IMG/VR virus record: IMGVR_UViG_3300007770_000001
Origin: a virus
Taxonomy: Duplodnaviria; Caudoviricetes
Length of the DNA: 64,000 nt
Reading direction: 5' to 3' (one strand)
Shown here: positions 12,495-35,900 of the stretch, piece after piece
Layout of the letters: each line of letters begins with the position of its first letter
How positions within the stretch are numbered: the stretch's first letter is position 1
The notes under the pieces: generated by a model
The model's database searches: none
What the model saw: the letters and a program-made list of their open reading frames with translations, nothing else
What the model was told of the DNA's origin: nothing
Program-made: the position numbers and the translations under genes

Positions 12495-13640
12495 ATGCCT
12501 CTTCAGTGTCCTGTGTGCTCTCGGAACGGGTTCAAACGACTCACGCGCCACTTGAAACAGGCCCATTCTCTTTCGAAGCCTGAGGCCCTTGCGCGCTATC
12601 CGGGGCTGGTCTTCGAGGAACCCCTTCCTTCTCGGGAGATTCCCTGCTCAAGCTGCGGGGAGATCGTTCCTGGGGTTTCCCCGCGTGCGACCTACGTCAA
12701 GTGCGAGAAGTGTCGAGTCCCCCCATACACAGGACCCCAGGTATCCTGCGCACTATGTGGAATCTCCCGAAGGAGTCTTCGGAACCACCTCAGGGCGTCT
12801 CATGAGTTGACACCGGACCAGTATCGTGCCAAGTATCCAGGAGAACCCGTAGAGGTTCCTGGGATCCGAAAGAAGTCTCCAGAGACCCGCACCAAGATGT
12901 CTGCCGGAGCTACTCGTCGGTGGTCCGACCCTGAGAAGAGAGCAGAGCAATCCGCTAAGCTGAAGCAGGTAGCTCCCTGGAAGGGGAAGAAGCTATCTCC
13001 AGAGCATAGGGAAGCCATATCCAAGGCTGTCACAGGGTGCGACTACAACCTATCGGAAGAGGGGCGTAGGATCCGAGCAGAGTGTGGTCGGCGTGCTCTT
13101 GAGAAGATTCGCCAGAGACCTGGATATTGGGAGCGCGTTCGGAAAGGCCAGAAGGAGTCTCGTGCAAGAAGAGCTCGGGAGGGAACTCTCTATTTCCCAA
13201 ACGGAAGAGGGATATCCGGGATCCGGAAGGATGTTGGACACTTCACCAGGTCTACGTTGGAGGCCAACTTTTCCCGGGTTCTCCTCCTCAACAAGATCCC
13301 CTACCAATATGAGCCGAAGTGCTTTAATCTGCAGATAGGGGGGAACACGGTCCTCTATCTCCCAGACTTCTACCTTGAGGAACCTTTGTCCCACGACGGG
13401 CGAGTTCTTGTCCCTGCAGGTTGGGTTGAACTGAAAGGTTGGAGACCTAAACCGAGCGATATCCCTTGGATTGCTCAGGAGAAGATAGACGCCCTGTCCC
13501 TTCTGGTAGGGTCTTCAGTAGCCCTGGTGGTCCAATCCGAGCCCTCCTGGACAGATATCCGAGACATTTGGAGACCGCAGATACCCTTGTGGGAGACGGG
13601 ACGTAGGAATCTGCGGACGAACCCTCAGATGTTTCGTTGA
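12495..13640 (+). mobile_element. Free-standing homing endonuclease gene: Zn-finger repeats + NUMOD3-like segment + PD-(D/E)XK nuclease
   Basis: CxxC..H.x4.H fingers; KGKKLSPEHREAISK (NUMOD3-like); RSTLEANF..YQYEP..YLPDF..VELKGW nuclease core. Lower GC than neighbours. Confidence 0.8.
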
Positions 13641-27879: not shown

Positions 27880-29735
27880 GCCACACGTTCCTGTATGATC
27901 GGGAGTCTCCCGACCAGCCTGAGAAGGCTGGGAACCCGTTCCCCCAAGGAGAGGCCCCTGGGAACTCTGGTGGGAATTCCCCCGCTCACGACAGCATGAA
28001 CCCCGCCTCGTCGAAAGTGATCCCCGACCACCTCAAGCATGGCTTCAAGCTCGAGCTGAATCCCGCGTGGGTGTCCCAGGTTCGGGAGGTCATTCGGAGA
28101 GGTCTTCGTCGCAAGTCGAGCCTGGTGTTCCGCCCCAAAGGGTGGAGAGCACTTGGGAGCGAAGCCCTCCAGGAAATGGGGTCTTGGCCTCGGAACCTGG
28201 TGTGGCGGGGAATGACCCAGGCGGAGTTCAAGAACACCGTGGGGTCTCTCAAACCTATCTGGAGTACTGGAAGATTCTCCCTGGAGGGGGAGGGCACCAA
28301 CTTTGCGGAGGACCCGCGAGATGCCGAGTCCTATGTGAACTTTGGTCGTGACGACCCTCGCAATACCAACCAGAACACGTATCTTGTGGGGGTCCGGCGC
28401 CATCCGGATATGAGAAAGGAACGGGACGGATACATCAAGATGCCCTCTCCCCTACCTCTCGATTTTGTTGAGGTGGTGTGGGAGATGTATCCTGAGGAAG
28501 GGGCCGTGGTTGGGAGGACAATCCGATCCTCAACCCGGACAGCCGCGACCTCTCGGGACATACTGGATAGGACGTCCAGAAAGGTCCTGGACAGCGCGCG
28601 CAGGGTTCGGCTCACCCCGGTAGCCTCGGGGGAGCGGGACGGCGTCTACACCCTCCGAGCAGCCGGGAGCAGCGGCACACATACGGTCAAGATCCGGACT
28701 TCCCGGAACCACGTCTGGTGTGCCTGCTCGTGCCCCTTCTGGCAATACCAGGGACCCGAGTTCTGGGCCAAGAATGGCGGCTATCTTCTGGGAGATCCCC
28801 GAGGAACAGCAACCCGTCCCGACAAGAGAGATCCCAAGGGGCAGAACTGGTGCTGCAAGCACGTAGCTGCCGCTCTCCGGATGTATCCAGAGGTGCGGGG
28901 GAAGACAGCTTCCTTCCATGCCCTGCCCTGTCCCAAGCGCGTTGCTATCCGGTTTGCTATCTCGAGGATGGAGCATTCCTGGGCTTGGATCTCCCCCTCG
29001 GGTCGGTTCATCGAAATCAGGGATCACGGTCGTTGGGCTTGGAAGAATCACCCAGATATCCTTCTCTCGTATGCCCTGGAGGAATGGCCCTCCCACTACA
29101 AAGCCCCTGCTGGATACATGGAGGACATCCTTCCATCCTTGACCCGTGATTCAAGAATTGTTGAGAGACAGGACACTCCCGGGTTGGTCGGAACCGAGGT
29201 CCTCCAGTTGAACTCCTCTGTCTTGAACTCTCGTCGGTTCAAGTCTCGTCAAAGATGGATGGATGTCCTGGGCAAGGGCTATTGGCTCCCTCATGAAAGG
29301 CTCTCCCGAGAGGAAGAGAAGTTCATCGAGCGGGCGCATCAGGAGCACGGGTCCGTATTCTCAAAGGAGACACGGGTCCTGGAAGACTCCCCAGCCAACA
29401 AGGCTCGTCGGAAGTTCTGGAAAAAGGAGCGTCAGAGGATTGGGATGGATCTCCGGGAATGGGCCTCTCGGGCTCTTCACGAAGATGGATGGATGTCCGC
29501 TTCCAATACCCAATCTGTGAGCTTGGCGGACGGAGAGAAGGGGAACCGTGCCCAGTGGGACGCCTTCTTCCGAGTGGTGCTCTCAGAGTTCGAGAAGTCC
29601 CGCCAGAAAGAACTTCCTCCCGATCTCTATGTCACCACCCCCCGGACTATCCGAACGCTCTCTTATGAGGATGCTTTGGAACAGAAGGCCAGCAAGAGAA
29701 CCCAGGACGCCTTCTATGAGTGGCTTCTCAGGTAG
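27876..29735 (+). CDS. Multidomain protein, 619 aa: ART-like segment + SWIM Zn finger + WISPxG module
   Basis: VWRGMT...GTNFAEDPRDAESY (ART-like); CACSCPFW...CCKHVAAAL (SWIM CxC..CKH); WISPSG..DHGRWA. Confidence 0.7.
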   Translation: MSHTFLYDRESPDQPEKAGNPFPQGEAPGNSGGNSPAHDSMNPASSKVIPDHLKHGFKLELNPAWVSQVREVIRRGLRRKSSLVFRPKGWRALGSEALQEMGSWPRNLVWRGMTQAEFKNTVGSLKPIWSTGRFSLEGEGTNFAEDPRDAESYVNFGRDDPRNTNQNTYLVGVRRHPDMRKERDGYIKMPSPLPLDFVEVVWEMYPEEGAVVGRTIRSSTRTAATSRDILDRTSRKVLDSARRVRLTPVASGERDGVYTLRAAGSSGTHTVKIRTSRNHVWCACSCPFWQYQGPEFWAKNGGYLLGDPRGTATRPDKRDPKGQNWCCKHVAAALRMYPEVRGKTASFHALPCPKRVAIRFAISRMEHSWAWISPSGRFIEIRDHGRWAWKNHPDILLSYALEEWPSHYKAPAGYMEDILPSLTRDSRIVERQDTPGLVGTEVLQLNSSVLNSRRFKSRQRWMDVLGKGYWLPHERLSREEEKFIERAHQEHGSVFSKETRVLEDSPANKARRKFWKKERQRIGMDLREWASRALHEDGWMSASNTQSVSLADGEKGNRAQWDAFFRVVLSEFEKSRQKELPPDLYVTTPRTIRTLSYEDALEQKASKRTQDAFYEWLLR

Positions 29736-29764
29736 CTGGGTATCTTGGAGTCTCTGGAGACCTC

Positions 29765-30148
29765 ATGCCGACCTATACCTACCACTGCGATGCCTGTGAC
29801 CACCCCTTCGAGAAGATCCTTCGGATGTCCCAGTATGCGGATCCTCAGGACTGTCCGGAGTGTGGAGGGGCCGCTCGGAAGACTGTATCTCCTGTAGGAT
29901 TCGTCCTCAAGGGAGATGGCTGGACAGGGAAGAACCTCAAGATCAAGCGCCAGATGGCCAAGAAGAACCAGCGTCTTGATGCCAAGGCAGCGGACCGCCG
30001 TCGCTCCTCCTCGGGGCCCAAGTTGGTCCCCAATGTCGGCGGGGAGCGGACCGAGTCTTGGTCCGATGCTGGGAAGCTCGCCAAGTCCAAGGGGTTGGGC
30101 ACCTCGGGATACGAGAAGAAGGCGGCTTCGGAGAAGTCCTCTTCCTGA
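29765..30148 (+). CDS. FmdB-family zinc-ribbon protein
   Basis: MPTYTYHCDACDHPFE...CPECGG.ARK..S..GF.LKGDGW. Confidence 0.85.
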   Translation: MPTYTYHCDACDHPFEKILRMSQYADPQDCPECGGAARKTVSPVGFVLKGDGWTGKNLKIKRQMAKKNQRLDAKAADRRRSSSGPKLVPNVGGERTESWSDAGKLAKSKGLGTSGYEKKAASEKSSS

Positions 30149-30961: not shown

Positions 30962-31633
30962 ATGGCCAACACCGCATACGTCTGCCGGCTCCGGACCGAT
31001 ATCCCTGCCGGCACTCTCCAGCTGCTCGATCTGCAGCCCAACACCTCCAGCCGCAACCTCACCCTCGAGCCTGTCGGCCAGTCCGGCTACCTCGGGGACC
31101 GGGTCGAGAACGACACCCTTGCTGCCCTGACCGGCGGCACGGACACCGCTGCTGTGTACAAGGGTCTCGCCGCGTACCTCATCGACAACGTCATCGACGG
31201 CACCTCCAACGTCACGATCACGGTGACGGTCGCCAACGACGGGGCTGCTGGCCTCATCGCTCTGCTGGATGCCGGCTCTGCGCTGACCGAGGCTGCCATC
31301 AACGCTGACCTGATCGCCACGGGCGGAGCAGGAGCGGGCACCGACATCAACGCAAACAGCTCCTCGGGGAGTGTCAAGGACATTCTGAAGATCATGAGCG
31401 GCGGTAAGTACACCCTGCCCTCCGGATCGACGGTCGGTGGCCTCTCCGCTGCTGCGGAGCTCGGCTCCTTCGACGACGACGCCTACCGTCAGCTGTACGG
31501 AACGAGCGCCCTGCAGATCTCCTGCGGCTCGGGTCGGATCGCCACCTTTGCGGCGGCGGCCTTCTCGTACAGCGGGACTGCGGGTGCTGCCCTGGTCGTG
31601 TACGACCACGAGGGCAACGTCCTCTCCGCCTGA
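30962..31633 (+). CDS. Probable abundant virion protein (223 aa)
   Basis: Extreme codon bias like the 762-aa fibre gene; Ala/Gly/Thr-rich. Confidence 0.6.
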   Translation: MANTAYVCRLRTDIPAGTLQLLDLQPNTSSRNLTLEPVGQSGYLGDRVENDTLAALTGGTDTAAVYKGLAAYLIDNVIDGTSNVTITVTVANDGAAGLIALLDAGSALTEAAINADLIATGGAGAGTDINANSSSGSVKDILKIMSGGKYTLPSGSTVGGLSAAAELGSFDDDAYRQLYGTSALQISCGSGRIATFAAAAFSYSGTAGAALVVYDHEGNVLSA

Positions 31634-31728
31634 TCCAGTTCTCCTTTGAGGACGTTGCCCCGTCCTCCTTGGCCTGTCGCGTCTGCGTTCTCCGGTTCGT
31701 GGACGCGACTCTGCGTTTGGGAGGCTGA

Positions 31729-31956
31729 ATGTTCAGGACCAAGGATCTGTACTTCGCCGCGTACCTGAAGGTCGCCGCCCTCACCTATGTGGGGACTGAG
31801 CGAGAGGGGGCTCAAGTCACCTGGGTCTTCGAACATCCAGGTCGGGATGTCCTCGGGGCTCTACGTCATCAGTTCTACGCGGATACGGCGCGGGTCCCTG
31901 CCCTCTCCTTTGTTCAGGCGATCAAGGATCTCAAGCGTTCCGTCTATCGGGAGTAG
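31729..31956 (+). CDS. DUF5659-like small phage protein
   Basis: T.DLYFAAYL...L......VTWVF pattern as recalled; GGAGG RBS. Confidence 0.55.
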   Translation: MFRTKDLYFAAYLKVAALTYVGTEREGAQVTWVFEHPGRDVLGALRHQFYADTARVPALSFVQAIKDLKRSVYRE

Positions 31957-31998
31957 TGGAGTAGAGAAGCTATCTCTCCCCCCTGATAGGAGGTCCTC

Positions 31999-32508
31999 AT
32001 GGGAACCGTCTTCGAGCAAGGCCAGGAACTTGGGCGTGGAGACCTGGATATCTTCACCGAAGACTCCGACGGGAACCCAGTCAATGTCTACGAGATTTCA
32101 TACTCGATCTACTACGTGGACTCGGACAACGGGGCTGAAGTTCTCATCGGTCCGGATACCCGAACGCCGGTGAATCCTGAGGTCGGGGAATACTACGCTG
32201 CGGTCCGGATTCCCAACTCTGCCGTGGCGGGCTGCTACCGCATCAGGTGGCGGGTCCGAGAGACTGCTTCCTCATCCCAGGAAGGTGCTGTCCAGGAGTT
32301 TGGCGTCGTTGCGGATGTCTCAGGAACGGCAGATGTCTACACGACGGCGGTCCGGGACCTGATCAACAAGCTCCGGATCATGACCAGGGACAACTGCCTG
32401 GGCGGGGACACCCTGGTGGAAGTGGACGCGGACGGGGAGATCATCCAGGTGAGCCTCGAGGACTTGTACGAGGCGATTGGGGATATGCCCATGCAAGAGG
32501 CATCCTGA
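31999..32508 (+). CDS. Fractured gene, 5' half: N-extein (132 aa, Ig-like; putative neck/adaptor protein) + split intein N-fragment
   Basis: ...KLRIMTRDN|CLGGDTLVEVDADGEIIQVSLEDLYE: intein block A begins at Cys133. Confidence 0.85.
   Translation: MGTVFEQGQELGRGDLDIFTEDSDGNPVNVYEISYSIYYVDSDNGAEVLIGPDTRTPVNPEVGEYYAAVRIPNSAVAGCYRIRWRVRETASSSQEGAVQEFGVVADVSGTADVYTTAVRDLINKLRIMTRDNCLGGDTLVEVDADGEIIQVSLEDLYEAIGDMPMQEAS
32395..32505 (+). mobile_element. Split intein N-fragment (Int-N, 37 aa)
   Basis: C-L-x-G-D-T-x-V block A followed by I..LY; 10 Asp/Glu, no Lys/Arg; ends at TGA. Confidence 0.85.
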
Positions 32509-33440
32509 TGCCAAGACCCGCGACACCCCCCAAAGACCCGCCTCCGGAGATCGTCCCGTACCTGGAGAAGCATGAGATCAGTTGGGAGTTGTTCTCGCGC
32601 AGGATGGTCCGTGATCCCGAGGTGAAGAGGATTCGAAGCGAAGTGGTTACCGAACTCCACCAACAGGGGAAAACCTGGGCTCAGATGACAGCTCTCACTT
32701 CTTTCGGCGCGGGGCAGCTGAGAGGGTACACCCGTGCGGTAGGTTGTGTGGCCTCCCGAAAAAACCTGAGCGAAGCGGGAGCACGTTCTGGCAGGGCCCG
32801 AAAAGGGGAGAAGAAGCCATGGTTTTCCAAGCAGATGAAGGAGAGATGGGAGAAGGGAGAATTCGACTTCCATAGAGGGAGGGTGCGTTCGGAGGAAGAG
32901 AGGCAAGCTCTCAGGGATTCTTGGACTCCAGAGAGGAGAGCAGCGTTTTGCCGAACCATGACGGAACGTTGGGCAAACCCGGAATTCCGGCAGAAGTTGG
33001 AAAGATTCCATCAGGACCCAAAGACACGTATGGAGAGATCCGCACGGCAAGCAGCAGCTATCAAGGCGGATCCCCAGAAATGGTCTTGGGGGAAGGGTTC
33101 CCGGGTACGCAGCACCAAATCGGATAGAGCGAGGTTTTGGGTTCGAAGCACCTTTGAGACCGCTGCTGTCCGGCTATTGGAAGGGGATGTCCAGGTTGCC
33201 AGCTACGAGTACGAGCCTGTTTTCAAGGATGAGGCAGGCCTCACAATTTTGCCAGACTTCAAGGTGGTCTTCACAGACGGGTCATGGAAGATTGTCGAGG
33301 TGAAAGCAAGTTGGGTTCTTAGACTCCCCCCAGAACACCCCAAAGCCCAGAAGCTCGCGCGTTACCGCCGGTTAGCAGAGCGGCTGGGGGTGTCTTTCGA
33401 GATTTGGACAGAACAGGACGTGCTCCATGATCACCTCTGA
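32508..33440 (+). mobile_element. Free-standing endonuclease (TnsA-like PD-(D/E)XK with NUMOD3-like tract) between intein halves, 310 aa
   Basis: TGATG overlap with the upstream stop; RSTFE..YEYEP..PDFKV..IVEVKA..K..G.SF.IWTE. Confidence 0.8.
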
Positions 33441-33816
33441 GACCAGAAACAGGATTCGCGCCGCTTTCTCAGTGGGTCGGCTGAAGACCCGCACCGTCTC
33501 TCCGGAAGGGAAGGGACGTTGGCAGCGTGTTCTGAAAGCATCCAAGATGGAGATTCCAGATTCTTTGGATTGCCTGGAGGTCTCTACTTCCAGGGGGTCT
33601 ATGATCCTCACGGAAGACCACAGGGTTTTCACGGCACCCACTGAGAAGACAGAGGCGAGGAATCTGGAGAAGGGATCTCCTGTGCTGGGGTCTGGGGGCC
33701 TGCTGATCCTGGTGACTCAGGTCCGGGCTGCCCCTCGCGAGCGCTTCATGTTCGACATCACCGTGGAGGGGGATCACAACTTCATTCCCGTGGGGTCTGG
33801 GGTCGTGGTGTCAAAC
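33427..33816 (+). mobile_element. Split intein C-fragment (Int-C, 130 aa)
   Basis: TxxH, block F and terminal Ser-Asn followed by Cys+1; basic N-terminus. Confidence 0.85.
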
Positions 33817-34317
33817 TGCCCCGACAAGCACTACAAGTTCCGTCCTCCTGAAGGAACGGAGACCGTGGGCTGCTACAACCAGGTCTTTGGTTATATCTGG
33901 ACTGACGAGGAGCTTGCCCAGTATCTCGAGATGGCCCTCTGGAAGTGGAACCTCTACCCTCCGGACACTTCTGCCAAGTGGACCACGGTCGACAAGGTGT
34001 ACAAGGGGAAGCAGGGTTGGAGATCAGCTCTCCTGTGGGGAGCTCTGGTCTTGGCCGCCCAGGCTCTCAGCTTCCAGTGGGTCGCGAATGAGTTCGGCTA
34101 CAGCATCGGAGGAATCAGCCTCGATCTGGAGAAGTCCTCCAAGTACCAGGCTCTCCGGGCGGACGCCGAGGCTCAGTGGACTCAGCTCACAGAGGCGAAG
34201 CAGCGTACCGAGAAGTACATGCGGGGCTTGGCCCAGCCCAGGTTCGGCAGGGGGGTGAGGTCGGCCTTTGGTCCACATGTGGGAGCGGGAATTTTGTCTC
34301 CACGGTCATTCATCTAA
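33427..34317 (+). CDS. Fractured gene, 3' half: split intein C-fragment (130 aa) + C-extein (166 aa; putative head-tail adaptor/neck protein)
   Basis: Block B LTEDHRVF, block F MFDITVEGDHNF, block G VVVSN|C. The extein has IWTDEEL..YL..AL..N..PP and F.YSIGGISL...SKY. Confidence 0.85.
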   Translation: MITSETRNRIRAAFSVGRLKTRTVSPEGKGRWQRVLKASKMEIPDSLDCLEVSTSRGSMILTEDHRVFTAPTEKTEARNLEKGSPVLGSGGLLILVTQVRAAPRERFMFDITVEGDHNFIPVGSGVVVSNCPDKHYKFRPPEGTETVGCYNQVFGYIWTDEELAQYLEMALWKWNLYPPDTSAKWTTVDKVYKGKQGWRSALLWGALVLAAQALSFQWVANEFGYSIGGISLDLEKSSKYQALRADAEAQWTQLTEAKQRTEKYMRGLAQPRFGRGVRSAFGPHVGAGILSPRSFI

Positions 34318-34382
34318 CCGGTTTTTAGGGCTTTATTTGGGACGCAGGGTACGGTAACCTTCCTTCAAGGGGGTTCTCACCC

Positions 34383-35900
34383 ATGCCCATCATCTGTCCC
34401 CATTGCTCACGTAGATTCAAGGGCACATCGATCAATTCCAGGCACAAACGTGTCTGTGCCGGATGGCCGAACCCACCCTCTCCGATCCCCTGCCTGTGCG
34501 GCCATGAATCCACTTCATCTACCCAGATGAAGCGCCACCGTCGGACTTGCTTTACATGGCAGTCTCGGGACAAGAAGGCAGTGGCCCAGGCGCGGAAGCG
34601 GGAGACCTCTCTTCGGAGGCACGGGGTCGAGAACGGTTCTCAGGCCCCTTCTGTGCAGGCACGACGTGCTGCGACCAACCTCGAGAGATACGGACACACC
34701 AATCCGGGAGCCTCAGAGCAGGCCAAGGCCAAGATCCGACAGACCAACCTGGAACGCTATGGCGTAGAGCATGTCACCTCATCTCCGGAGGTTCAGGCTC
34801 GGATGCGGGAGACCCTACGGAGGAATCATGGGGTCGGCAACCCGTTTGAGTCCCCGGAGGTCCAGGCCAAGATCCGAGCTACGATGCTCGAGAGGTACGG
34901 AGTTGAGAATCCCCAGCAGTGTCCGGAGATCCGAGCCCGCACGACAGCTACGTGCAAGGCCCGTTACGGAGGCAGGCTTCTTGCTTCTCCGGAGATTGCT
35001 GCGAAGGCTCGAGCCACGAACCTGGAACGCTACGGGGACGAGGTCCCTCAGCGCACTCCCGAACTTCGGGAGAGGACCCGCCAGACCAACATGGAGAGGT
35101 ACGGAGTCCCCTGGACCTGCATGGACCCAGAGGTCCGAGCGAAGCAGCTGGCGACGCACCACAAGAGGTATGGGTCCCACTACTTCGCCTCAGAGGAGGG
35201 CAAGGCCCAGATTCTCGCATCTTTCCGAGAGAGGTATGGGGTCGATCATTGGATGCAGGCTGAGGGGGCGTGGGACAGGCTCGTCGCCGTGTTCCAAGAG
35301 AGATACGGAGTCGACCATCCTCTTCAGCTCGCAGAGTTCCTGGAGAAGCGCGTCCGGACAACCCAGGCCCGCTATGGCGTGGACCACGTGCTTCAGGACG
35401 TGGAAATCATGGCCCGTCTCCAAGCCACGAACATGGAGAGGTATGGCCACCCCTTTGCGATGCAAAACAAGGAGGTGAGCAGTAGGATGGTTGCCACCAA
35501 GATCGAACGGTACGGAAATCCCTGGGGACCCTCTCCGGTAGACGGACCCAACGGTCTGGAACAAGCCGTTCATGCCCTTGCCCCAGAGGGATCCCTCCTA
35601 TTCACAGGGGATTTCACGTTCTGGAGATGGCTGCCAACACTCTCCAAGCACAAGAACCCCGATTTCATCGTTCCGGGACCTGATCCGGACCATCCCAAGC
35701 GGGGAGTCACGAAGGTCGTAGAAGCGTTTGGCGACTACTGGCACAGCCGGATGTTCACGGGAAAGGTGCCGTTCGCCCACGAGCAGGAGCTCATCTCCGC
35801 CTATCAAGAGGTCGGTATCGAGTGCCTGGTCGTCTGGGAGTCCGAGGTCAACTCAGAGCCTGAGGGAGTTCAAGCCCGGCTGGCCAAGTTCCTCTCGTAG
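34383..35900 (+). mobile_element. Free-standing endonuclease: Zn finger + 14 tandem ~23-aa repeats + VSR/DUF559-like nuclease
   Basis: Repeats (A/Q)TNLERYGV.....PE...K; C-terminal NPDFIV...VVEAFGDYWH...G.ECLVVWE. Confidence 0.8.

Follow-up and report, generated by a model that had tools for sequence, protein, structure and literature searches.

A gene for a conserved huge-phage protein, apparently fractured by an atypically split intein and a free-standing TnsA-like endonuclease gene

Introduction

How can a conserved phage protein be made from a gene that lies in two pieces, with an endonuclease gene between them? We studied this question at a locus of a 64,000-nt stretch of Caudoviricetes DNA (IMG/VR record IMGVR_UViG_3300007770_000001, hereafter the window). 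Such "fractured genes" were described in 2009, among them a terminase locus in which the break follows motif N1 (Dassa et al., PMC2677866). From sequence comparison and structural modelling, we consider it very probable that the locus is a fractured gene of this kind, in which a class-1 split intein with a TnsA-like endonuclease between its halves is predicted to yield a trans-spliced protein of 298 aa. A preliminary description of this DNA had proposed this reading, and it passed each computational test that we ran; splicing itself is what we infer.

Results

Three coupled genes encode one host protein in two pieces

The sequence of the window contains three coupled ORFs on the + strand, which encode the N-extein with Int-N, the endonuclease, and Int-C with the C-extein. 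The features of the locus are as follows.

31988-31993, + strand: AGGAGG, a Shine-Dalgarno-like motif read in the sequence, 5 nt before the N-piece ATG; presumed role
31999-32508, + strand: N-piece ORF, 169 aa, ending in IMTRDN/CLGGDTLVEVD...QEAS and the stop
31999-32394, + strand: N-extein, 132 aa, N-terminal part of a conserved huge-phage protein
32395-32505, + strand: Int-N, 37 aa, beginning at Cys1; block A and helix alpha1
32495-32500, + strand: AAGAGG, ahead of the endonuclease ATG
32506-32508, + strand: N-piece stop TGA, directly after Int-N
32508-33440, + strand: free-standing endonuclease ORF, 310 aa; its ATG overlaps the N-piece stop (TGATG)
33427-34317, + strand: C-piece ORF, 296 aa, with a 14-nt overlap with the endonuclease ORF
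33427-33816, + strand: Int-C, 130 aa, with an Arg/Lys-rich start and blocks B, F and G
33817-34317, + strand: C-extein, 166 aa and stop, opening with the +1 nucleophile Cys131 and continuing as CPDKHYKF

Re-reading the sequence reproduced to the base the ORF coordinates, both overlaps and the intein block positions of the preliminary description. In the C-piece, LTEDH is block B, FDITVEGDHNF is block F, and VVSN/C is block G with the +1 residue. The start of the C-piece is preceded by AGGA, and although a gene caller began this ORF at Met59, residues 1-58 of Int-C are kept in homologs, so that 33427 is the real start. Two host ORFs on the same strand, one ending in Int-N and the other starting with Int-C, therefore flank a free-standing endonuclease ORF, as is characteristic of a fractured gene. 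This three-ORF layout is not due to chance, since an intein C-terminal model matches Int-C above its cutoff (see below) and the same layout is found in many independent metagenomic contigs. Furthermore, the proteins of the window are also present on contigs of up to 339 kb.

We examined whether the locus might really hold one contiguous intein with an internal endonuclease, in which the stop codon and the overlaps arose as errors of sequencing or assembly. Nothing beyond the general error rate of metagenome assembly speaks for such errors, and we regard their probability as practically negligible: the endonuclease is read in another frame than the two intein halves, 10 in-frame stops lie between these halves, and unrelated samples show the same layout. 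The region 31900-34400 is spanned by four Logan assemblies of two studies, which may derive from the source samples of the window itself; they match at every base of the junctions, contain neither an indel nor a joint, and differ by one substitution, at 34152. With the contigs of four runs showing no indel over the stretch, this explanation was rejected.

The distance between Int-N and Int-C had been taken as a hint of removal at the RNA level, because the two halves share a reading frame and are separated by 921 nt, a multiple of 3. Under this explanation, 32506-33426 would be excised as an intron that houses the endonuclease ORF, as group I introns often do for homing endonuclease genes, and a contiguous intein would be translated. 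We consider this extremely unlikely. The frame match is absent in the related locus L001, where the two intein halves are in different frames, and the length of the N-piece tail varies among relatives, while each C-piece has its own conserved Met start. An Rfam E-value scan of 31500-34800 found no intron, with one chance-level match (RAGATH-32, E=0.55). The insert is fully coding, with its TGATG and 14-nt overlaps, and so leaves no room for a ribozyme core. An RNA-level intron was rejected on the lack of both an Rfam intron and non-coding space. None of the RNA runs among which the stretch was looked for carries it.

Both pieces carry conserved intein motifs

The first residue of Int-N, Cys1, is Cys133 of the N-piece, and the alignment has Cys at this position in all 16 N-pieces and in P0040, an allele with a contiguous intein. 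The same sequences keep the pattern C(L/I/V)GGE..(V/I)E.D..GE....L..L(Y/W), and the whole Int-N segment is missing from uninterrupted homologs. Int-N ends after SLEDLYEAIGD, the counterpart of which is the TLEELYDLID stretch of P0040 and of 5bkh, the Pyrococcus mini-intein compared below. On the Int-C side, T62, H65, D110, N118 and N130 are invariant in an alignment of 19 sequences, with T62-E-D-H65 forming block B; block F of the window additionally has H117, and the +1 residue is Cys131. All compared relatives have either Cys or Ser at +1, at an overall identity of 31-48%. Blocks A, B, F and G of a class-1 intein, with the terminal Asn and the +1 nucleophile, are accordingly all present in the two pieces. 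With 37 aa in Int-N, its end after helix alpha1 and blocks B, F and G in Int-C, the split falls at the position defined as S2 (Int-N of 15-37 aa ending after helix alpha1; PMC13014065). In the family as a whole, Int-N is 30-40 aa long.

Profile searches of the fragments, which the preliminary description had suggested as a check, gave a divided answer. TIGR01443 (intein_Cterm) matched the window Int-C with 26 bits against a cutoff of 15.6, whereas PF14890 (Intein_splicing) stayed under its gathering cutoff (E=3e-4, 21 bits). The contiguous P0040 came closer to the PF14890 cutoff of 35.8 bits (E=2e-7, 31.4 bits), and a paralogous Int-C from a second site, site b, of locus L012 exceeded it (53.5 bits).

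Block G ends in Ser129-Asn130, and the penultimate residue is thus Ser in place of the usual His. Inteins without the penultimate His can splice, though their rates may be low. This substitution had been singled out as an oddity of the locus; it is truly there in the window, but among the inteins compared at this site, site a, Ser is found in 12 of 17 and His in 5, so Ser is the commoner state of the intein family and not peculiar to the window copy.

The opposite charges claimed for Int-N and the start of Int-C were recovered by counting: Int-N contains 10 acidic residues and no basic one (net -10), and the first 45 residues of Int-C have a net charge of +7. Every copy of Int-N is negative, from -5 to -10, and most split copies have +2 to +7 at the start of Int-C; the contiguous copy has 0 there. 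When Int-C (1-140) and Int-N (125-169) were modelled as a complex, the ipSAE was 0.79, compared with 0.05 for the best of 3 controls; the predictor may give the HINT fold a high score through memory of solved inteins. Of 78 solved complexes, 51 attain the mark set by this score, as do 2 of 108 mismatched pairs. Docking runs had at least 89% of contacts in agreement and a partner pLDDT of at least 78. The modelling supports binding of Int-N to Int-C.

Complementary charges and a confident predicted docking would equally suit intein halves that only associate non-covalently or only cleave, in which case the host protein would be a two-chain complex and the intein a degenerate module; the Ser in place of the penultimate His would also be in keeping with this. 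Mere association, however, would not demand invariant splicing residues, and Cys1, the T..H of block B, the block F Asp and Asn, the terminal Asn and the +1 Cys or Ser are all invariant at this degree of divergence. Furthermore, a retained domain of 167 aa would probably hinder assembly, since the site lies in a conserved sequence segment, in a stretch of the homolog model that has low confidence (residues 132-157, pLDDT below 50). We therefore regard an association-only module as improbable and retain trans-splicing as the predicted outcome.

Empty, contiguous and fractured alleles at the same site

Related huge phages have uninterrupted homologs of 297-298 aa, which read TRDN-NPDK where the window has TRDN, the intein and CPDK. 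In the uninterrupted L004 (298 aa), L005 and P0049, which show 67-73% identity, the junction is TRDN-(N/D)PD(K/R)NY, and the CPDKHYKF of the window lines up with NPDKNYKF and DPDRNYRF. The empty site RDN-(N/D)PD is found in these three and in about 67 further clusters. The C-extein is 67-73% identical to the C-halves of uninterrupted IMG/VR homologs, and the N-extein aligns over its full length with L004, P0049 and the N-pieces of relatives. Exteins of 132 and 166 aa add up to 298 aa, the length of L004. The preliminary description had anticipated both a continuous junction in uninterrupted homologs, found here as RDN-NPDK, and this product length.

An allele with a contiguous intein was found in locus L009, where P0040 (450 aa) contains a 152-aa mini-intein at the same site without an endonuclease gene. 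This intein can be aligned over its full length with the Pyrococcus PolII mini-intein 5bkh (E=4.9e-7).

The fractured three-gene layout is present in LR745208.1 (485 kb; about 43% identity), in L008, L010 and L012 and in an ENA contig, and in these recurring loci the endonuclease ORF always overlaps the start of the C-piece. L001 shows the layout of a fractured gene as well. Among about 200 retrieved cluster representatives there were 52 C-pieces that begin with Int-C, 23 N-pieces with Int-N and 67 uninterrupted proteins. The layout is common to dozens of metagenomic relatives, whose lineages have diverged to about 40-57% identity.

This distribution bears on whether the gene is simply broken, that is, whether an endonuclease insert inactivated both the intein and the host gene and left decaying pseudogenes. 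An endonuclease gene can be a selfish insert and the host protein might be dispensable, yet dozens of fractured lineages keep open frames, starts, coupled overlaps and catalytic residues, and the exteins are still about 70% identical to uninterrupted homologs of a protein that is itself very conserved (81% mean column identity among 31 uninterrupted homologs). Decay of this kind is in our view very improbable, and the split-intein reading continues to account for the locus.

In some relatives, such as L012, the same gene is fractured twice, into three pieces. We lean slightly towards a population-wide, two-site series that includes the locus of the window as one allele, and in which paralogous mini-inteins at sites a and b were each broken independently at the post-alpha1 loop, by a TnsA-like endonuclease at site a and a DUF559/Vsr-like one at site b. 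Under this hypothesis, three polypeptides would be joined into the L012 protein by two natural, atypically split inteins that are related to each other but mutually orthogonal, one of them being Ser1/Ser+1 and cysteine-independent.

The intervening gene encodes a TnsA-like nuclease

A TnsA-like PD-(D/E)XK endonuclease had been proposed from the sequence, and both the fold match and an invariant E...PD...ExK set bear this out. The AlphaFold model of the protein (pLDDT 86) found TnsA as its best Foldseek matches (1t0f_A, E=9.7e-6, probability 1.00; 1f1z_A, 5.8e-5), and an alignment of 28 sequences, which include 27 homolog clusters, shows no variation at E217, P249-D250, E264 and K266. Pfam PF08722 (TnsA-like_N) matches the window protein below its gathering threshold (E=0.005, 17.9 bits compared with 26.5), while the L012 ortholog passes (27.9 bits) and precomputed tables annotate PF08722 on several homologs. 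The nuclease domain is C-terminal; the N-terminal 190 residues are helical with W..PE.R repeats and probably bind DNA.

The endonuclease gene is present only in fractured alleles, and none was found in the empty (L004, L005) or contiguous-intein (L009) alleles. We propose the protein as a candidate homing endonuclease. PD-(D/E)XK enzymes are known to act in this way, for example I-Ssp6803I and I-Bth0305I (PMC2677866, PMC3239194); unlike I-Bth0305I, the window enzyme is outside the Vsr-like family. It resembles Tn7 TnsA (1t0f, 1f1z) in the restriction-enzyme fold and the E...PD...ExK residues, but it lacks the TnsA C-terminal domain and has no TnsB or TnsC partners, so it is not a transposase.

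A local tblastn search within the window detected no second intein. The same search gave one weak second endonuclease-like match, later backed by hhalign. In L001, BLASTP of the upstream ORF 1405-2529 against the endonuclease was not significant.

The host is a conserved phage protein and not a terminase

The N-extein is predicted to form an Ig/macroglobulin-like beta-sandwich followed by a helix, and the C-extein consists mainly of helices and has a C-terminal tail that is very conserved. In the AlphaFold model of the uninterrupted homolog P0049, the overall pLDDT is 66, with about 85 for residues 1-105. Structural comparison by VIA-align gave macroglobulin-type domains as the best matches (Z up to 9.4), and with this homolog model Foldseek against the PDB and VIA-align (wide and second look) matched only a generic Ig/macroglobulin-like N-domain. 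Host-protein searches returned no match in PHROGs, Pfam or NCBIfam and no PDB relative by sequence profile. BFVD matches to the homolog model were uncharacterised phage proteins and phage G gp165, and the Atlas feature matches to gp13, adaptor and connector clusters all score below 0.9. The sole functional label comes from Tunturi_5 gp319, a homolog of 30% identity that is named "head-tail connector protein". The host protein is clearly not a terminase, and on this one database label we describe it as a putative virion or neck-adaptor protein.

Comparison with known split inteins

The preliminary description had presented the split just after block A as atypical. It is indeed atypical, but it has precedents in the 2009 terminase locus, GOS-TerL and AceL-TerL. 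The first of these was reported as "fractured at an unusual point", with an Int-C that has all N motifs but N1 (PMC2677866). GOS-TerL has a 37-aa Int-N, and both AceL-TerL and GOS-TerL are split after helix alpha1 (PMC11766414, PMC13014065). By description, the window shares with GOS-TerL a phage gene, a set of loci with an endonuclease between the halves, a 37-aa Int-N, the S2 split, class 1 and Cys at +1; GOS-TerL differs in its large terminase host and Ser1, whereas the window has a non-terminase host and Cys1.

A short Int-N (15-37 aa) that folds onto a large Int-C is also found in AceL-TerL, Cat-TerL, VidaL and PolB16, which are natural or consensus inteins with an atypical split and are prized for semisynthetic protein ligation (PMC11766414, PMC13014065, PMC10189870). 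AceL-TerL has the S2 split of the window, VidaL and PolB16 an earlier one, after strand beta2 (S1). All four are in terminase or DNA polymerase genes, and for no member of the group has a non-enzymatic phage protein as host, or a TnsA-like endonuclease, been reported (same sources). With gp41-1, gp41-8, NrdJ-1 and IMPDH-1 (Dassa et al. 2009) the window has in common three same-strand ORFs in phage DNA and charge complementarity; the split of these inteins, however, falls at the usual endonuclease site (Int-N 88-105 aa, Int-C 33-54 aa), and their hosts are DNA-metabolism enzymes. The fractured loci of 2009 contain GIY-YIG or Vsr-like endonucleases and non-coding spacers of 27-51 nt with control elements, whereas the window has a TnsA-like enzyme and overlapping genes; endonuclease family and spacer describe the 2009 set and are no logical requirement for a fractured gene.

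The closest solved relative by sequence is the mini-intein of Pyrococcus DNA polymerase II (DP2; PDB 5bkh, 7oec, 2lcj). P0040 and this intein match over the whole domain, including the start C..GDT..V...G....TL.ELY.L, but the DP2 intein, which is archaeal and contiguous and has a replicative polymerase as its host, is only distantly similar.

Discussion

Our results suggest that a huge marine phage encodes a conserved 298-aa protein in the form of two polypeptides. A class-1 mini-intein lies between Asn132 and the next residue of the host protein, and a free-standing gene for a candidate homing endonuclease has entered the loop after the first helix of the intein, the S2 atypical split site. 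Translational coupling of the three genes suggests joint production of N-piece, endonuclease and C-piece. The acidic Int-N of 37 aa would then dock on the 130-aa Int-C, which is basic and partly folded, and the HINT fold would be completed, after which formation of the Cys1 thioester, attack by Cys+1 and cyclisation of Asn130 would join the exteins as TRDN-CPDK. The TnsA-like PD-(D/E)XK enzyme may cut alleles that lack it, so that the element spreads by recombinational repair; this homing activity and its target we likewise infer.

The fractured layout was known before; what is new is the intein lineage, as judged for the TerL inteins by description, the host protein and the TnsA-like endonuclease. 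On sequence grounds, the locus is a new and widespread natural example of what is predicted to be an atypically split intein. Inteins that are split in nature and whose Int-N is short are rare (AceL-TerL, GOS-TerL, VidaL and PolB16 are those named), and further candidates have been stated to be lacking (PMC13014065). They are sought because a synthetic Int-N is feasible, for ligating labelled peptides to proteins, and this intein family, with its many diverged natural pairs, is a possible source of protein-ligation tools. If the two-site reading is true, the family would be a natural source of orthogonal short-Int-N tools, and the post-alpha1 loop would be a recurrent landing site for endonuclease genes.

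With this locus, fractured genes would no longer be confined to DNA-metabolism enzymes and terminase, and a TnsA-like enzyme would join their endonucleases. Furthermore, the living alleles still represent each stage through which split inteins are proposed to have arisen, from the empty site through the contiguous mini-intein to the endonuclease-fractured intein, a series that corresponds to the "gene-breaking" model (Dassa et al. 2009, PMC2677866).

The fractured gene and its boundaries

Re-reading of the sequence returned exactly the three-ORF layout of the preliminary description:

31999-32508, + strand: N-piece, 169 aa, reading ...IMTRDN and then a 37-aa segment, the Int-N (CLGGDTLVEVD...QEAS*)
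32508-33440, + strand: endonuclease, 310 aa, its ATG having one base in common with the N-piece TGA
33427-34317, + strand: C-piece, 296 aa, with LTEDH, FDITVEGDHNF and VVSN|C, then CPDKHYKF...

The endonuclease ORF overlaps the C-piece ATG by 14 nt, and the start codons of the N-piece, endonuclease and C-piece are preceded 5-8 nt upstream by AGGAGG, AAGAGG and AGGA, respectively. The proposed charge complementarity of the halves was also found, with 10 acidic and 0 basic residues in Int-N and a net charge of +7 in Int-C residues 1-45. Because residues 1-58 of the C-piece are conserved in the alignment of homologs, the start at 33427 is correct. The recorded gene call (P0005, 238 aa) begins at Met59 (33601) and omits these 58 Int-C residues; automated annotation would therefore hide this half of the intein.

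At the level of sequence, comparison with uninterrupted homologs is the decisive test of the boundaries. We found such homologs on 150-297 kb IMG/VR contigs, with 67-73% identity to the window C-extein. The homolog at the empty allele L004 is 298 aa long and reads ...ILTRDN-NPDKNYKF... where the window has ...IMTRDN|intein|CPDKHYKF..., which matches both the expected RDN-CPDK type of junction and the length of the predicted spliced product (132 + 166 = 298 aa). A more distant uninterrupted homolog is gp319 (283 aa) of the cultured jumbo phage Tunturi_5. The intein signal expected from HMM scans was detected in C-piece residues 109-131 by NCBIfam TIGR01443 (intein C-terminal splicing region; 26 bits, cutoff 15.6), and more weakly in the C-piece, below the cutoff, by Pfam Intein_splicing (E=3e-4).

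Furthermore, in a 450-aa homolog (P0040, locus L009) the same site (site a) is occupied by a contiguous mini-intein of 152 aa, and no endonuclease gene lies beside it. The sequence of this homolog runs through the break point of the window (...TLEELYDLIDKENDSIIKESFKEGTL...), which locates the split to the loop that follows the first helix. Its mini-intein aligns end to end with 5bkh, the solved mini-intein of Pyrococcus PolII (E=4.9e-7).

Natural atypical splits fall after strand beta2 (VidaL, PolB16) or after helix alpha1 (AceL-TerL, GOS-TerL), with an Int-N of 15-37 aa (PMC13014065, 2026); that of GOS-TerL, a fractured terminase intein, has 37 aa and that of AceL-TerL 25 aa (PMC11766414). 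The split just after block A, described as atypical, is therefore present in the window but of an already known position, and by its sequence we assign the intein to a known kind, the S2-type (post-alpha1) atypically split intein within a fractured gene.

Recurrence of the split state

The order N-piece with Int-N, endonuclease, C-piece starting with Int-C is also found in a 485-kb uncultured phage (LR745208.1, ~43% identity), a 442-kb contig (L008), loci L010 and L012 and one ENA contig, each time with an overlap between the endonuclease ORF and the C-piece start. Searching with the protein sequences yielded 600 C-piece relatives and 45 N-piece relatives; among ~200 retrieved cluster representatives, 67 are uninterrupted, 52 are C-pieces with Int-C first, 23 are N-pieces ending in Int-N and several are mixed. 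A sequencing or assembly artefact is excluded by the frame structure of the ORFs, by this recurrence in unrelated samples and by four assemblies from two studies (possibly the source samples of the window) that are concordant over both junctions.

Next to the question of assembly stands that of RNA-level removal, as Int-N and Int-C share a reading frame across a gap of 921 nt that contains 10 stop codons. Excision of the insert as an intron is unlikely: an Rfam scan of the locus gave no match, the insert is entirely coding with ORF overlaps at both ends, the two frames differ in LR745208.1, and every C-piece has its own conserved start.

We scored conservation on 16 N-pieces and 19 Int-C sequences, at only 31-48% identity. 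No variation was seen at Cys1, at Thr and His of block B, at Asp and Asn of block F or at the terminal Asn, and the +1 residue is Cys or Ser without exception. The penultimate Ser, previously singled out in place of His, is indeed present but is no peculiarity: with Ser in 12 of 17 site-a inteins (His in 5), it is the ordinary state in this family. All copies have an acidic Int-N (-5 to -10), and the Int-C start is mostly basic in split copies and neutral in the contiguous copy. Conservation of the fractured state, the catalytic residues and the starts contradicts the view of the pieces as a decaying gene.

A complex prediction for Int-C(1-140) and Int-N with eight extein residues scored 0.79 (best of 3 controls, 0.05), a mark that 51 of 78 solved complexes attain, as do 2 of 108 mismatched pairs; three runs had at least 89% of contacts in common, with a partner pLDDT of at least 78. 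As folds like solved complexes may score high because the predictor has been trained on them, we read this result as the two halves together completing a HINT-like fold, which falls short of proving binding. It is conceivable that the halves associate with no peptide bond formed, but this would leave the invariant catalytic residues unexplained.

A TnsA-like endonuclease

Homologs of the endonuclease form 27 clusters (38-63% identity, all ~300-345 aa) with invariant E217, P249-D250, E264 and K266, an E...PD...ExK signature. In the AlphaFold model (pLDDT 86) the N-terminal two-thirds is helical and an alpha/beta domain lies at the C-terminus; the top PDB fold matches of the model are TnsA of Tn7 (1t0f_A, E=9.7e-6; 1f1z_A, 5.8e-5); fold and signature together uphold the TnsA-like PD-(D/E)XK identity. 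Pfam TnsA-like_N matches the window copy under its cutoff and the L012 ortholog over it. The TnsA C-terminal domain and a transposition partner are both absent. Fractured alleles have the gene; empty alleles and those with a contiguous intein do not. A homing endonuclease gene would be expected to vary in this way; activity and target are inferred.

Other endonuclease-like ORFs were observed. ORF 12495-13640 of the window (381 aa) is distantly related to the intein-associated family (hhalign probability 88%, E=3.3e-6), with a W..PE.R repeat region and an RS..E...YEP...LPDF core in common. Directly 5' of the LR745208.1 N-piece, a 374-aa ORF (L001:1405-2529) contains YLPDFWV...RIEDTKG, which by eye looks similar to a PD-(D/E)XK motif; a BLASTP comparison with the window endonuclease was not significant (E=0.4), and the window has no counterpart at the matching position.

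Immediately 3' of the C-piece, the 505-aa ORF 34383-35900 matches DUF7487 in Pfam (E=5.6e-81) as well as PHROG 3339 'homing endonuclease' (E=2.5e-44); the unit ...ERYGV.NP... recurs in its sequence, and the motif PDF...EAFGDYWH is found C-terminally. The ORF has an equivalent at the same position in L001, L008 and L010 and none in L004, L005, L009 and L012; given this patchy distribution, it appears to be another mobile endonuclease gene, independent of the first, adjoining the fractured gene.

A second intein site and three-piece alleles

A second intein site (site b), NW(I/V)..EF|S...AHN|SYSIGG, lies in the same gene. It is empty in the window (...VANEF-GYSIGG..., near 34095), and in relatives a paralogous mini-intein sits there, either contiguous (P0015, P0155) or split. 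This intein has Ser1 and Ser+1 and, like that of site a, is split in the post-alpha1 loop. At L012:3573-7415, the host gene is fractured twice, into three pieces encoded within five consecutive genes:

Gene 1: N-extein + Int-N(a)
Gene 2: TnsA-like endonuclease
Gene 3: Int-C(a) + mid-extein + Int-N(b)
Gene 4: DUF559/Vsr-like endonuclease (30 bits, cutoff 20.6)
Gene 5: Int-C(b) + C-extein (PF14890, 53.5 bits)

Three-piece fracturing is also found at L011:452-2864; the proteins concerned are P0132, P0134, P0140, P0142, P0148, P0149 and P0147. In these related huge phages each site has its own endonuclease, TnsA-like at a and DUF559/Vsr-like at b. We know of no described natural protein built from three pieces via two split inteins.

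The host protein

The host protein is strongly conserved (mean column identity 81%, 31 uninterrupted homologs), and the family libraries searched give it no name and PDB no similar sequence. In a model of the uninterrupted homolog P0049 (pLDDT 66), residues 1-105 form an Ig/macroglobulin-like sandwich; a helix follows, then a stretch of low confidence (132-157), at the start of which the intein site lies, and finally a helical C-half. The hits of fold searches with this model either cover the sandwich only (Z up to 9.4) or are uncharacterised proteins of phages and gp165 of phage G.

The virion or neck role is the weakest part of the earlier account and is putative. Tunturi_5 gp319 bears the database label 'head-tail connector protein'; in the accessible part of the Tunturi_5 paper, annotation relies on automated tools, Phold among them, and no proteomics of virions is reported. 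Atlas feature matches to gp13, adaptor and connector clusters, all <0.9, are leads only, and no structural annotation was found among the genes neighbouring the fractured gene.

Upstream, genes at 29720-30148 and 31729-31956 are syntenic with L012:2101-3540. They comprise a Zn_ribbon_8 protein (Pfam E=3.6e-14), a ~230-aa protein and a small ORF (DUF5659 in L012), none with a structural annotation.

Relation to known fractured genes

Fractured genes were defined from 26 metagenomic loci, mostly phage-derived, with DNA-metabolism enzymes and a terminase as hosts and GIY-YIG or Vsr-like endonucleases (Dassa et al. 2009, PMC2677866). Their terminase locus is broken at an uncommon position, which leaves Int-C with all N-terminal motifs but N1. 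The window differs from the known systems in its intein lineage, whose closest solved relative is an archaeal PolII intein, and in a host protein that is no DNA-metabolism or packaging enzyme; unlike the 2009 loci, it has a TnsA-like endonuclease, and gene overlaps where theirs have a spacer with control elements.

Taken together, the boundaries, recurrence, invariant residues and predicted fold completion support the proposal of a gene fractured by a split intein whose halves have a free-standing endonuclease between them. These sequence comparisons support a fractured gene that is both genuine and widespread and holds an atypically split intein of the S2 type, for which splicing and homing are predicted. 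Its practical interest is as a source of split inteins whose Int-N is short, and its evolutionary interest lies in the living allele series in this gene.
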